Sequence record: PQ159479 | DNA length: 50,260 nt | Strand: one strand, 5' to 3' | From: Escherichia phage Henu4_2 | In this document: positions 5,685 through 43,005 of the stretch, piece by piece | Layout of the letters: every line of letters begins with the position of its first letter | How positions within the stretch are numbered: the first letter of the stretch is position 1 | Made by a program: the position numbers and the translations under genes | The notes under the pieces: generated by a model | Told to the model about the DNA's origin: nothing | The model's database searches: none | The model's input: the letters and a program-made list of their open reading frames with translations, nothing else

Positions 5685-6182
5685 ATGATCGCTAAAAATG
5701 ACCTTTGCAACCTGTTAACGGCTGGTAATGATTATCAGGTTTTGAATAGCACAAAAGACCGTTATTTTATTGAGTGTGACAATGGGGATCGCATGTGGCT
5801 TAAAAAAGGCTTTTTCGAAAGTGAGCATCTATGCAATGCAAAGCGAATCGCAGATGAAGCAAGCGCATTAGCAGAGCGTGAACGAATTCGCGATATAGTA
5901 GCGGAGCAGGTTAGAAATTCATGTTTGCCTGGTGGCGATATCTTCAAATCAATGCGCGGTGAAATGACGGTTGGAATTCAAGATCGCGTAATTGAAAAAT
6001 CAGTTGATCCTGTAATTGAGAATGCGCGATTCAATGCGTTGATTAACTCAGAGACTAACGAATACATTAAAGTGTTAGAGCAACTGCGTGAAGTGCTGCG
6101 AGTGCCGGAAGGTGAAAATATTGTCACTCATGCAAAAGTTGTAAGAGCGTTGGCTGATGCGCTGATTGGTCTGCAAAAATAG
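5685..6182 (+). CDS. hypothetical protein
   Basis: 165-aa ORF from ATG 5685 with RBS AAGGAGAG; stop TAG inside motif copy 7. Confidence 0.5.
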   Translation: MIAKNDLCNLLTAGNDYQVLNSTKDRYFIECDNGDRMWLKKGFFESEHLCNAKRIADEASALAERERIRDIVAEQVRNSCLPGGDIFKSMRGEMTVGIQDRVIEKSVDPVIENARFNALINSETNEYIKVLEQLREVLRVPEGENIVTHAKVVRALADALIGLQK

Positions 6183-6222
6183 CACTTTTTGTTAAAACTT
6201 CCGCGAGGGCATTTGTTAAAGT
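6179..6222 (+). promoter_or_regulatory. conserved early element copy 7 (TGtTAAAGT)
   Basis: ATAGCACTTTTTGTTAAAA; TAAAGT 22 nt after TTGTTA; weak GAGG/CCTC stem. Confidence 0.45.
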
Positions 6223-6256
6223 ATCCTCATTGAAGCGAAACACGGAGATTTAGGAA

Positions 6257-6466
6257 ATGGCTGTATACACTGGCAAAATGTTTGAAAGCGAAAACCCGAT
6301 TTACGGCGGCACTTATGAGCTAATCATTGATGAAGATCGTGTAATCCTAGCTGACGACGATAACCAGGAATATTACGAAGTAGAAGCCGATAAATGGGAT
6401 AACGACGTTATGTTTCTTGTTGATAATAGCCGAATCAAGTTTTATGCAGTGGAGGAAGAAGAATGA
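6257..6466 (+). CDS. hypothetical acidic protein
   Basis: 69-aa ORF, RBS GGAGATTTAGGAA. Confidence 0.45.
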   Translation: MAVYTGKMFESENPIYGGTYELIIDEDRVILADDDNQEYYEVEADKWDNDVMFLVDNSRIKFYAVEEEE

Positions 6467-6714
6467 TCACAATTAACCTATCAGAAGAACAAGCGAAATC
6501 ATTGTTGCGCGGCATGGGCTGGCGAATGGGTAGCGGTAGCGAGGCGGTTGTAAACATCAAAGAGGAAGTAGCAAAAGAGCTTTTTGCACAGCTTGAGCAT
6601 AAACTTATGCCAGCCTCAACAAGCGCGGCGGAGTTGGCAGTGTGGCGGCATGAAAACGGCCTTAATGAAATGGATGTTGAGAAGTGGAAGCGTAAAAACG
6701 AGGTGATGCAATGA
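6463..6714 (+). CDS. hypothetical protein
   Basis: 83-aa ORF, ATGA overlap. Confidence 0.45.
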   Translation: MITINLSEEQAKSLLRGMGWRMGSGSEAVVNIKEEVAKELFAQLEHKLMPASTSAAELAVWRHENGLNEMDVEKWKRKNEVMQ

Positions 6715-7139
6715 TTTATATTCATAGTTACGGCGTTGGTAAGTTTGGCAACAAGCAGATCCGAAATATTTACGACACTCTCGATGAAGCAATGGCACAG
6801 CAACGCGTTTTAGGTGGAGTTGTTCAGGCTTACGCAAAAGAGCCGGAAGTAAGAAAGCAACACGCAGAGTGGAGCGATAAAACATTTGGCGGCATTGATA
6901 AGATCGGGGCAATCGGACCACTTAAACACCTTGCTAAAGAGGCAATGGAGGCAGCAGAAAATCCAGGTGATTTATCAGAATGGGCTGATATGCAGTTTTT
7001 GTTATGGGACGCGCAAAGACGCGCAGGAATAACCGATGAACAGATAATCAATGCGATGATTGAGAAACTTAAAATAAACAAAGAAAGGTCTTGGCCTGAA
7101 CCTAAAGACGGCGAGCCGCGACACCATTTAAAAATTTAA
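6711..7139 (+). CDS. DUF550-like protein (MazG-like nucleotide pyrophosphohydrolase fold candidate)
   Basis: pattern EW..KTFG ... HL.KE..E ... DL.EWAD ... N.ERSWP matches my recollection of the DUF550 family. Confidence 0.45.
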   Translation: MIYIHSYGVGKFGNKQIRNIYDTLDEAMAQQRVLGGVVQAYAKEPEVRKQHAEWSDKTFGGIDKIGAIGPLKHLAKEAMEAAENPGDLSEWADMQFLLWDAQRRAGITDEQIINAMIEKLKINKERSWPEPKDGEPRHHLKI

Positions 7140-40141: not shown

Positions 40142-41257
40142 ATGAGTGCGGCAAAAATTACGGACGAACAACTTATTGCAGAAAGGGCAGCAGGTTTAAA
40201 ACTGCGTGAGATTGCTGAAAAGTACGGAATGAGCTTGCGACAGGTTGAGCACCGTCACAGCAAATTGGCTAAACGTGGGGAAATATCAACAATCGGATCG
40301 CCTGGCTTTGCTGTAATTGGCGAGTCAAAGTTAGTTGATAAGAATGGTAACACTAAACTAACATGGATTAAGACGCACAAAGACAAAGAGCAATTAGAGG
40401 CAATCATGCAAGCGGCTATGGCTGCATTTTCGGAAGAAGTGCCGCGCATCAAGCCGCAACCGGAAAAAATTACTGATTACTCGCAAACGCTGGCGTTATA
40501 TCCGATCTTTGATATCCATATTGGCGCAATGGCTCATAAGCATGAAAGCGGTGAGAATTACGACACGGCAACAGCGGAAAACGTAATGAATGAGTTTTTC
40601 GATTATGCAGTTGATAAAGCGCCGAATAGCGAAAAGGCCGTATTGCTGATTGGTGGTGATATGATTCACAGCGACGGATTAGAAGCCGTCACACCTGCAA
40701 GCGGTCACGTATTGGATCAGGATTCACGTTATGCAAAACTGGTTTATGTTGCCATTCGTGCCACGCGTAGAGCAGTAAGCCGTATGCTTGAAAAGCATAA
40801 AGAGGTTGAGATCCAGATCATTGAGGGTAATCACGACCAATCAGGAATGATCTGGCTACGTGCTGCAATGGCGGCGGCGTATGAAGATGAACCACGCGTT
40901 AATGTTGATGTTTCTCCGCGTGTAGTGCATCACACGCAATATGGAAAAACGTTCCTTGCTTATCATCATGGCCACACTGTACGCAAGCCAGAAACGCTTT
41001 TAATGATGTGTGCAGCGGATTGGCGGGAAGATTTCGGAAACTCCAATTCAATGTATGCGCATGTGGGGCATTGGCATCATCAGACAGTCACAGAAACGAG
41101 CCTGGGCATTGTTGAGGTTCATAGCACTATGGCGGCTAAAGATGCTTATGCGGCGCGTGGCGGTTGGCGTTCACGCCGTAGAGCGGCGGTAATTATCTAT
41201 GATAAGGAATATGGCGAGATAGGGCGCTTCATGTTCTACCCTGAAATGATTGCATAA
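40142..41257 (+). CDS. HTH + calcineurin-like metallophosphoesterase
   Basis: N-terminal HTH-like LKLREIAEKYGMSLRQVEHR; phosphoesterase motifs DIHIGA, GGDMIHSD, GNHD. Confidence 0.7.
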   Translation: MSAAKITDEQLIAERAAGLKLREIAEKYGMSLRQVEHRHSKLAKRGEISTIGSPGFAVIGESKLVDKNGNTKLTWIKTHKDKEQLEAIMQAAMAAFSEEVPRIKPQPEKITDYSQTLALYPIFDIHIGAMAHKHESGENYDTATAENVMNEFFDYAVDKAPNSEKAVLLIGGDMIHSDGLEAVTPASGHVLDQDSRYAKLVYVAIRATRRAVSRMLEKHKEVEIQIIEGNHDQSGMIWLRAAMAAAYEDEPRVNVDVSPRVVHHTQYGKTFLAYHHGHTVRKPETLLMMCAADWREDFGNSNSMYAHVGHWHHQTVTETSLGIVEVHSTMAAKDAYAARGGWRSRRRAAVIIYDKEYGEIGRFMFYPEMIA

Positions 41258-41369
41258 TTAAATTATCACATAAAAAGGCTGGCTAAATGCTGGCCTTTTT
41301 TTGTTTTTGTCGTTAACATAATCAGACTGTTTTTTGATATTGACTTTTTAATTTTTAAGGGATCTAGTT

Positions 41370-41585
41370 ATGCGTGAATTTATTAACTTTGCAACTTATT
41401 CAAGTGGTGGTGCTTCATTCTCTGGCGCTGCAACTGGTCAATTAATGTTGGCGGTTCTAACATTCATATTCTTTGTTATTTTCGGCGCTGTTGGCTTGTG
41501 GCTAAGGTGGCGTGACAGCAAGGCGATCCGAGAGGCGTTAGAGTGTGGAGATCTTAAAACCGCTCTTAAAATTAACCAAAAATAG
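41370..41585 (+). CDS. holin (class with single TM; pinholin candidate)
   Basis: 71 aa, TM LMLAVLTFIFFVIFGAVGLWL, charged C-terminus; directly upstream of endolysin. Confidence 0.65.
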   Translation: MREFINFATYSSGGASFSGAATGQLMLAVLTFIFFVIFGAVGLWLRWRDSKAIREALECGDLKTALKINQK

Positions 41586-41597
41586 GGAGTGAATTTA

Positions 41598-42092
41598 ATG
41601 GCTATTAAAAAGACAATAGCCGCTACCATAACGGGCGCGGCTTTAATGATGGCATCGCCCTTGATTGAAGAAATTGAGGGCGTGAGGTATAAACCTTACA
41701 AGGATATTGCAGGAATCTGGACGGTATGCCACGGAATCACAGGAAAGGATGTGATATTAGGAAAGGAATATACCAGGCGAGAATGTGACGCGCTACTTGC
41801 AAAGCATATGAAAGTTGCGGCTGACGCTGTTGATAAAGCGGTTAAGGTTGATATTCCTATTTCTATGCGAGCGGCTTTGTACTCATTCACATTCAACGCC
41901 GGAACAGGTGCATTCAGTAAATCAACCATGTTGAAGAAGATCAACAATGGTGATCTGTATGGTGGTTGTGGCGAGCTTTGGAACTGGACATATTACCGGA
42001 ACCCGAAAACGGGAAAAAAGGAAAAATCAAAGGGATTGAAGAATCGCCGCGCTGTTGAATATAAATATTGTGTAATGGATCTGAATAAATGA
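41598..42092 (+). CDS. endolysin, GH24 lysozyme with putative N-terminal SAR domain
   Basis: catalytic E-x8-D-x5-T in [19 protein letters not shown]; weakly hydrophobic Gly/Ala-rich N-terminus. Confidence 0.85.
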
Positions 42093-42478
42093 AAAGAAAA
42101 TTACTGGCTATTATGATGTGCATTGCTCTTTCTGGTTGTTCAGCTTCAAGCGTTTTACCTGGTCTGATTGGTAGCAAGCCTGATATAACGGCACAGGCTG
42201 GAGCGGAGAATGTGAAACAGACTGTTGGTGTGACCGCAAAGCAGGATACATCAAGCAAGCAGGAAACAACATTCAAAGAATCGGCAGTTGGTCAGGTTGA
42301 CACGTCAAATAAAAAGCAGGTGAGCACCTCAAGCATTAAGGCCGATAACATCACGGCGGAAAGAATAGAAATTCGCAACAATGACGGTCTTAACGTTCCG
42401 GCAATCGCAATGGGTATATTAATGTTTATTGCTGGTATGCTGGCAGGTTGGACACTAAAACGTAATAAGGCGGCATAA
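42089..42478 (+). CDS. unimolecular spanin (lipoprotein with C-terminal TM)
   Basis: lipobox LSGC at N-terminus plus C-terminal [17 protein letters not shown]; same architecture as T1 gp11. Confidence 0.7.
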
Positions 42479-42493
42479 GCCGCCTTTTCTTTT
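42467..42493 (+). terminator. rho-independent terminator after lysis cassette
   Basis: GGCGGC-ATAA-GCCGCC + TTTTCTTTT. Confidence 0.7.
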
Positions 42494-42689
42494 ACTCAAA
42501 TTTTCTAACATGAATTAGCAATTCACCATCATGATTTGTCAGTTGATGCTCTTGATCCCCAAACGCTCGCATATCGCTATAAAGCAACAGCATTAACGCA
42601 TAGACAAAATCATCATGCGGAATTTGCATTGCTGAACTTTCTTTCAAAATAAGATCTATCAAATGCTGGCTTGCTGAATAATTCTTCAT
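42492..42689 (-). CDS. hypothetical protein (overlaps next ORF by 77 nt)
   Basis: 65-aa ORF in a different frame from 42613-43005. Confidence 0.3.
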   Translation of the reverse strand: MKNYSASQHLIDLILKESSAMQIPHDDFVYALMLLLYSDMRAFGDQEHQLTNHDGELLIHVRKFE

Positions 42690-43005
42690 CGCTCATTTTC
42701 TCTATATTCATAATTTCCAAAACATAACGATTTTTATCACCTTCCAGGCTATATAGTTCGAAATTAAACGGTCTTTTCATCTTGTTTTTACACCAATATT
42801 CGCAGTGTACGCCGTCCAAATATCCAAAACCCATAAGGCGAGAAATAAACTCTTTACTCACACTTGATGCGAAATAGCGGGGAGTTACCCCCGCATTTTT
42901 TGCAAGCCTTTCACATTCACGGTTGCGGAATATAAATCTTGCTAATTCCTGGCGGTTGAATTTCTCGCGAGACTCACAAAAGCGATACAGATCTAATAAG
43001 AACAT
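42613..43005 (-). CDS. hypothetical protein translationally coupled to the DUF3987-like gene
   Basis: 130-aa ORF; ATG 2 nt after upstream stop (TAATCATG). Confidence 0.4.
   Translation of the reverse strand: MFLLDLYRFCESREKFNRQELARFIFRNRECERLAKNAGVTPRYFASSVSKEFISRLMGFGYLDGVHCEYWCKNKMKRPFNFELYSLEGDKNRYVLEIMNIEKMSDEELFSKPAFDRSYFERKFSNANSA

Follow-up and report, generated by a model that had tools for sequence, protein, structure and literature searches.

The lysis cassette of a TLS-like siphophage: a predicted pinholin, SAR endolysin and unimolecular spanin

The closest described lysis systems are those of T1-family phages. In the spanin survey of Kongari et al. 2018, the holins of these phages are termed pinholins, and, apart from two, every member of the T1gp11 unimolecular spanin (u-spanin) family lies within a cassette that pairs a pinholin with a SAR endolysin (PMC6139136). 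The prototype of the family, T1 gp11, has the lipobox LSGC and complements lambda RzRz1, and phage TLS is listed among its 28 members (Table 5, PMC6139136). The lysis proteins of T1 have also been expressed one at a time. On its own, the endolysin causes E. coli to lyse from within, whereas the cytoplasmic T7 endolysin does not; the holin alone inhibits growth without marked lysis; and the spanin alone is lethal (PMC10954549). The T1 proteins are under engineering as antibacterials (PMC10954549), an application for which settling the SAR status of T1-type endolysins and the span count of T1-type holins would have some practical value.

Phage 21 provides a second reference system, with the pinholin-antiholin S21-68/71, the endolysin R21 and the spanin pair Rz/Rz1. 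We analyzed a lysis locus in the genome of Escherichia phage Henu4_2 (sequence record PQ159479; 50,260 nucleotides, hereinafter the window), which has in common with phage 21 the logic of a small holin combined with an exported endolysin. R21 is a clear homologue of the endolysin of the window, with the same catalytic triad and the same fold. In contrast, the holin of phage 21 is unrelated in sequence to that of the window, which also lacks the dual start, and the Rz/Rz1 pair is replaced in the window by one chain.

The window is closely related to several phages already in the databases. Between positions 41200 and 42600, its DNA shares 99.9% identity with Salmonella phages GJL01 and YSP2, 99.2–99.6% with vB_EcoS_011D2 and KKP 3830, and 89% with phage TLS; over its first 25 kb, the window matches the GJL01/YSP2 group at 98% identity. 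Because of this DNA identity of 98–99.9%, we assign the window to the species Tlsvirus YSP2 (Drexlerviridae, Tempevirinae). An earlier note on this DNA had placed it with T1-like phages, and the window is indeed that of a T1-family phage, with TLS rather than T1 as the nearer relative. The cassettes of GJL01, YSP2 and TLS (holN, LysN and rzlA) have the same gene order, gene sizes and flanking genes as the window. The records of GJL01, YSP2, KKP 3830 and TLS already carry the labels holin, (SAR) endolysin and unimolecular spanin, those of KKP 3830 and TLS naming the SAR endolysin and the u-spanin as such. Judged by these comparisons, the cassette is an ordinary lysis module, already published for TLS-like phages of the T1 family that infect Salmonella or E. 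coli.

The lysis block occupies positions 41370–42478 of the plus strand and, in the ORF list and the sequence, consists of three tightly packed, head-to-tail ORFs. Specifically, the first ORF (41370–41585) encodes a 71-aa holin homologous to T1 gp13 (phrog_2877, E = 3e-37), the second (41598–42092) a 164-aa GH24 (T4-lysozyme-type) muramidase with a predicted SAR domain at residues 1–23 (PF00959, phrog_7), and the third (42089–42478) a 129-aa u-spanin (PHROG phrog_1804, Rz-like spanin, E = 1.3e-51 over the full length). The earlier note had described a compact three-gene lysis cassette at this place, consistent with the fact that all three products match lysis families in PHROG. With PHROG E values of 3e-37 to 4.5e-53, and 3.6e-36 for Pfam Phage_lysozyme, the identity of the cassette is not a matter of chance.

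The cassette is bounded by hairpins on both sides. Upstream, a terminator-like hairpin on the plus strand (41272–41300), with a 12-bp stem and a T run behind it, ends the exonuclease gene (40142–41257) and delimits the lysis unit on its 5' side. Downstream, a bidirectional terminator-like hairpin (42467–42486), with an 8-bp stem containing six GC pairs and with T runs on both strands, overlaps the spanin stop codon and forms a 3' boundary common to the cassette and the convergent minus-strand genes. A hairpin scan found six terminator-like sites, compared with 1.5 expected in shuffled sequences. A weak sigma-70-like promoter match, TTAACA-17-GATATT, lies on the plus strand at 41313–41341 with 9 of 12 positions matching. 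It is a candidate promoter for the cassette and serves as a lead only, because a promoter scan counted no more sigma-70-like sites in the region than in shuffled sequences.

Translation signals accompany the three starts. The hexamer AAGGGA lies 8–13 nt 5' of the holin ATG. The endolysin ORF in the mechanically generated list opens at GTG 41589; this start was dropped in favor of ATG 41598, which has GGAG 8 nt upstream. The endolysin gene is thus placed at 41598–42092, because of the Shine-Dalgarno spacing of this ATG and because the resulting N-terminus matches those of the T1 and TLS homologues. The spanin ATG shares the tetranucleotide ATGA with the endolysin stop codon, and this stop/start overlap suggests translational coupling of the two genes.

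Alignment to the T1 proteins, proposed in the earlier note, gave full-length matches for all three products. The holin is 59% identical to gp13 over 71 aa, ungapped; the endolysin is 60% identical to gp12 over 162 aa; and the spanin is 39% identical to gp11 over 130 aa. T1 and the window also share the three-gene order, the flanking terminators, the LSGC lipobox, the E-x8-D-x5-T motif and the 71-aa holin length. The terminators annotated in T1 occupy the same relative places as both hairpins of the window, including the position relative to gene 11. The two loci differ between the exonuclease and holin genes, where T1 has an HNH endonuclease gene (ST15) and a stand-alone SH3/DUF7244 gene (ST14); the latter has recently been proposed as an accessory lysis component (PMC13164509). 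No counterpart of either ST15 or ST14 was found in the window by tblastn. The description of the cassette as compact is therefore apt, since these two T1 genes are absent here.

Gene order, homology, catalytic residues, lipobox, hydrophobic segments and flanking terminator-like hairpins are all visible directly in the DNA and its translations. We read the locus as the late lysis operon of a TLS-like siphophage that uses the pinholin, SAR-endolysin and u-spanin pathway of T1-family phages, and we give this reading a probability of about 0.85. The earlier note had regarded the combination of holin, SAR-type endolysin and u-spanin as typical of T1-like phages. The spanin survey bears this out, and because of what that survey reports on cassettes, the combination is a published trait of T1-family phages (PMC6139136).

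In such a pathway, the 71-aa holin would accumulate in the inner membrane through its transmembrane domain (TMD) at residues 25–45, with its charged C-terminal tail in the cytoplasm, and would trigger at a set time to collapse the proton-motive force. The endolysin would be exported by Sec from the start, and its weakly hydrophobic N-terminal segment would tether it, inactive, to the inner membrane. Depolarization would speed the release of the endolysin to the periplasm, where the GH24 domain (E27/D36/T42) would refold and cut the glycan strands of peptidoglycan. The u-spanin would receive its lipid at Cys17 and, as predicted from the Ser at position +2, go to the outer membrane, with its C-terminal TMD staying in the inner membrane. 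The single chain would thread the murein, and loss of the murein would be followed by collapse and by fusion or disruption of both membranes, probably fusion. The topologies, the SAR release, the small holes and the membrane fusion of this scheme we infer from what is known of the family, namely from work on phage 21, P1 and T1.

The membrane topology of the holin is disputed. The protein is 100% identical to the GJL01 holin and belongs to a small family (precomputed family PF27028) of 16 clusters when grouped at 90% identity; 1.84 billion proteins yielded 10 representatives of it at the 50% level, and IMG/VR yielded four loci with close relatives, too small a set for comparison. In local Pfam, the holin and the spanin gave only sub-threshold noise (PspB, DUF2501, Mucin). 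No charge interrupts the 42-residue run from 4 to 45 of the holin, and a highly charged C-terminal tail comes after it. Within this run, residues 25–45 constitute a strong TMD, with a summed dGapp of −3.5 kcal/mol for residues 25–43, while residues 4–23 form a weak segment rich in Gly, Ala, Ser and Thr, with a summed dGapp of +8.2 kcal/mol for residues 4–22.

We lean slightly towards a single-pass holin. The earlier note had called the holin a single-TM protein. The part of that claim that stands is the one strong TMD, together with the note "single transmembrane domain" in the T1 RefSeq record and the note "1 TMD predicted using DeepTMHMM" in the TLS GenBank record. The part that is disputed is the total count. 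The same TLS record names the holin "pinholin class 2", and a re-annotation of TLS assigns two putative TM segments to both the TLS and the T1 holins and places them in class II of pinholins (PMC11447400).

The alternative, to which we give a substantial chance that nonetheless falls short of even odds, is a two-TMD pinholin (class II, N-in/C-in) of the S21-68 kind, in which residues 4–23 would act as a SAR-like TMD1 whose exit from the membrane activates TMD2. The re-annotation and the term pinholin used by Kongari et al. argue for this arrangement (PMC11447400, PMC6139136). The uncharged run of residues 4–45 is long enough for two spans, and the value for residues 4–22 is close to the summed dGapp of +6.4 kcal/mol that we obtained for the proven TMD1 of S21-68, using a sequence confirmed to be 100% identical to the phage 21 genome. 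In addition, G13, G14 and the junction T22-G23-Q24 are present in all members of the holin family, with Glu in place of Gln in TLS and P0140, and a conserved, Glu-tolerant junction is expected of a turn at the membrane surface. Against two spans, the T1 RefSeq and TLS DeepTMHMM notes count one TMD, and the putative hairpin would have no loop, with a junction of three residues compared with about seven polar residues in S21-68. The AF2 model, although of low confidence (pLDDT 68, and about 50 at residues 11–20), also lacks a hairpin; it shows a helix at residues 2–13, a break at the invariant GG and a long helix at residues 19–58. BLASTP detected no similarity between the holin and S21-68 at E values up to 100, and an exhaustive profile search found no clearer two-TMD layout among the 10 cluster representatives.

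In the active form of S21-68, TMD1 lies outside the membrane, so a single-pass holin and a two-TMD holin would converge functionally. The small-hole (pinholin) nature of the protein is itself presumed from its pairing with a predicted SAR endolysin and from the T1 holin, which when expressed alone inhibits growth but causes no marked lysis. A dual-start antiholin has been proposed for the TLS holin, which has a second start Met (M1..M7) (PMC11447400). The holin of the window has no second start codon, and an antiholin of the TLS type therefore cannot apply to it.

The enzyme domain of the endolysin is of the GH24 type. It matches PHROG phrog_7 (E = 4.5e-53) and Pfam Phage_lysozyme PF00959 (E = 3.6e-36), and its best relatives of solved structure are R21 of phage 21 (3HDE and 3HDF; E = 3.9e-45) and RrrD of the DLP12 prophage (4ZPU). 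Over the catalytic domain, it is 53% identical to R21 by BLASTP. The E-x8-D-x5-T triad reported in the earlier note is present as E27, D36 and T42, none of which varies among 40 homologues of 55–87% identity. The AF2 model has a mean pLDDT of 88, and the top folds retrieved with it by Foldseek are 4ZPU and 3HDE, with a TM score of 0.73, followed lower in the list by P1 Lyz. A GH24 domain carrying an E-x8-D/C-x5-T motif is what SAR endolysins of the R21 and P1 Lyz type have, and the endolysin of the window fits that description.

The N-terminus of the endolysin begins with MAIKK and continues with 18 uncharged residues, 56% of which are Gly, Ala, Ser or Thr, with a mean Kyte-Doolittle value of 1.61. 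The weakly hydrophobic, Gly/Ala-rich segment ahead of the triad that the earlier note had pointed out is thus seen directly in the sequence. In each of the 40 homologues, a basic n-region leads into 14–20 uncharged, Gly/Ala/Ser/Thr-rich residues that end in ..SPL[LI]EE[IV]EG. A weakly hydrophobic segment after a basic n-region is the arrangement expected of a SAR domain, and we consider it likely, by homology to R21, that the endolysin is SAR-exported.

There are differences between this segment and the proven SAR domain of R21, which is longer and more hydrophobic. Specifically, the uncharged run comprises 18 residues here and 24 in R21, and on the summed Hessa dGapp, the best 19-mer scores +5.5 kcal/mol here and +0.8 kcal/mol in R21. 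The linker from the segment to the catalytic Glu is six residues longer in R21, and because of this shorter linker in the window, the refolding mechanism of R21 may not carry over. The disulfide caging of the P1 type is excluded, because the segment contains no Cys. In the AF2 model, residues 3–27 form a continuous N-terminal helix of low confidence (pLDDT 50–71), which cannot tell whether the segment packs as in active R21; the superposition on full-length 3HDE has a TM score of 0.73 and an rmsd of 7.3 Å.

It is possible, although we think it unlikely, that the T1/TLS-type module is a distinct variant of the pinholin-SAR system, in which a single-pass N-out/C-in holin is combined with an endolysin inactivated by the proximity of Glu27 to the membrane. 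In such a variant, the Gly/Ala/Ser-rich N-terminal 20 residues of the holin may never insert, and the protein may resemble the S21 pinholin minus TMD1. The endolysin may be inactive as Glu27 sits about three residues past the membrane segment, unlike R21, which relies on refolding, and P1, which relies on disulfide caging.

We also think it unlikely that the N-terminus of the endolysin is a Sec signal peptide of the usual kind, removed by cleavage. In that case, the enzyme would be a soluble periplasmic lysozyme whose activity is restrained by another means, such as dependence on the proton-motive force, as is the case for the endolysin of Oenococcus phage fOg44. The n-region MAIKK and a core of only 18 uncharged residues including Pro22 are nearer to signal-peptide than to transmembrane size, and the segment is far less hydrophobic than the SAR domain of R21. 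There is also reportedly a precedent in T4 RI, whose predicted SAR domain is said to have proved to be a cleaved signal peptide. The lysis caused by the T1 endolysin alone implies holin-independent export of the T1 orthologue, which fits SAR export and cleavage equally. Small-residue (−3,−1) signal-peptidase patterns are present in all homologues of the endolysin and could be counted in favor of cleavage. A simple scan found them in R21 and in all 42 relatives, however, and it does not discriminate, because Ala-rich segments always contain such patterns.

Several observations argue against cleavage. The endolysins of T1, TLS and the window have a single strict (−3,−1) site, GAA|L, whose cut would follow residue 15, at the centre of the hydrophobic core and too near the N-terminus, and the ALA|L site of many relatives is not kept in the window. 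The length and pattern up to the catalytic Glu (GAAL..SPL[LI]EE[IV]EG) are conserved, unlike those of a freely drifting signal peptide. The nearest characterized relatives, R21 and RrrD, are SAR enzymes, and both T1 gp12 and TLS gp68 have been annotated as SAR endolysins by specialists. SAR export remains our preferred reading of the segment.

The third gene encodes a protein with membrane signals at both ends. The N-terminal 17 residues form a lipoprotein signal, in which a motif scan identified the lipobox LSGC with Cys17, followed by Ser at +2 and no Asp. The only cysteines are at positions 11 and 17. The periplasmic domain of about 85 aa is rich in Ser, Thr, Lys and Gln and contains no Cys, consistent with the survey, in which none of 58 u-spanins has a periplasmic Cys (PMC6139136). 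The C-terminal TMD spans residues 105–123, with a summed dGapp of −0.6 kcal/mol, and is followed by KRNKAA. The earlier note had placed a lipobox and a C-terminal TM in one chain; both were found, and lipidation at Cys17 is predicted.

In SpaninDB, membership of the T1gp11 u-spanin family is defined by at least 40% identity over at least 40% of the length to a member. Because the spanin itself falls just under this threshold against gp11 (39%), it enters the family through TLS RzlA, to which it is identical at 128 of 129 positions. The periplasmic domain of the TLS protein, which differs by one residue from the spanin of the window, comprises 83 aa with 4.8% helix and 30% strand predicted by Jpred (Table S2, PMC6139136), which agrees with the beta-rich rather than coiled-coil prediction expected in this family. 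On the strength of its identity, its lipoprotein signal with sorting residue, its C-terminal TMD and its Cys-free domain, the protein is predicted to be a u-spanin of the T1gp11 family.

It is highly improbable that the third gene encodes an outer-membrane lipoprotein of another role, such as a Cor-like superinfection-exclusion protein, since the weak PHROG match that suggests it (phrog_1119, E = 0.0045, residues 1–55) is confined to the lipoprotein signal region, compared with a full-length match to the spanin family phrog_1804. In addition, the gene closes the cassette and its start overlaps the endolysin stop, the product has a C-terminal TMD that Cor-type lipoproteins lack, and the protein is 99% identical to TLS RzlA, whose family prototype complements lambda RzRz1.

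The window thus carries a standard Drexlerviridae lysis module, and its meaning is mostly one of correct annotation. In the GJL01 record, the endolysin start is placed 16 codons too late and the export segment is lost. Public records for the species Tlsvirus YSP2 mis-start the endolysin and drop this segment. Compared with TLS, the exonuclease of the window is 96% identical, the endolysin 96% and the spanin 99%, but the holin only 58%. The identity of the holin allele is thus well below the 96–99% of its neighbors, which suggests that the holin has been exchanged independently of the genes on either side or has diverged fast.

The holin is the divergent member of the lysis cassette. Its product (window 41370-41585, + strand) shares 58% amino-acid identity with that of TLS (1671-1895 in the coordinates of the TLS locus), whereas the adjoining genes are much more alike in the two phages, with amino-acid identities of 96% for the exonuclease (window 40142-41257), 96% for the endolysin (window 41598-42092) and 99% for the spanin (window 42089-42478). 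This uneven pattern suggests that the holin allele has been swapped or is evolving independently within an otherwise conserved cassette. The GenBank product name of the TLS holin is 'pinholin class 2', with the note '1 TMD predicted using DeepTMHMM'. This note is at odds with the TLS paper, which describes two putative TM segments for the holin (PMC11447400). The protein called 'T1 Gp67' in the same paper is actually the T1 holin, gp13 (PMC11447400).

The interval upstream of the holin differs from that of T1. In T1, the exonuclease and the holin are separated by ST15, an HNH endonuclease gene, and ST14, which encodes SH3/DUF7244 as a stand-alone gene (6029-6760 in the T1 locus), whereas the window has just a 112-nt spacer (41258-41369), and tblastn found no counterpart of ST15 or ST14 anywhere in the window. 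The SH3 gene ST14 has recently been proposed as an accessory lysis component (PMC13164509).

Unlike the TLS and T1 endolysins, which are annotated from the upstream start, the endolysin CDS in the GJL01 GenBank record begins at an internal Met (position 1947 of the GJL01 locus, corresponding to window 41646). This start removes 16 N-terminal residues (window 41598-41645), which carry the predicted export, or signal-anchor-release (SAR), segment.

Downstream of the cassette, two minus-strand ORFs lie in different frames and share 77 nt. The first (42492-42689) matches phrog_9539 (3e-37); the second (42613-43005), a homologue of T1 ST10, matches phrog_2794 (5e-61). Only the counterpart of the first is annotated in the GJL01 record, and only that of the second in the TLS record.

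GenBank record OR786094.1, named 'Streptococcus phage MBBL140' with Streptococcus agalactiae as its stated host, matches this enterobacterial Tlsvirus at 84% identity across the entire 1.4-kb cassette. Its lipoprotein spanin, of a kind suited to a Gram-negative envelope, makes the stated host look mistaken. The record carries no annotated gene.
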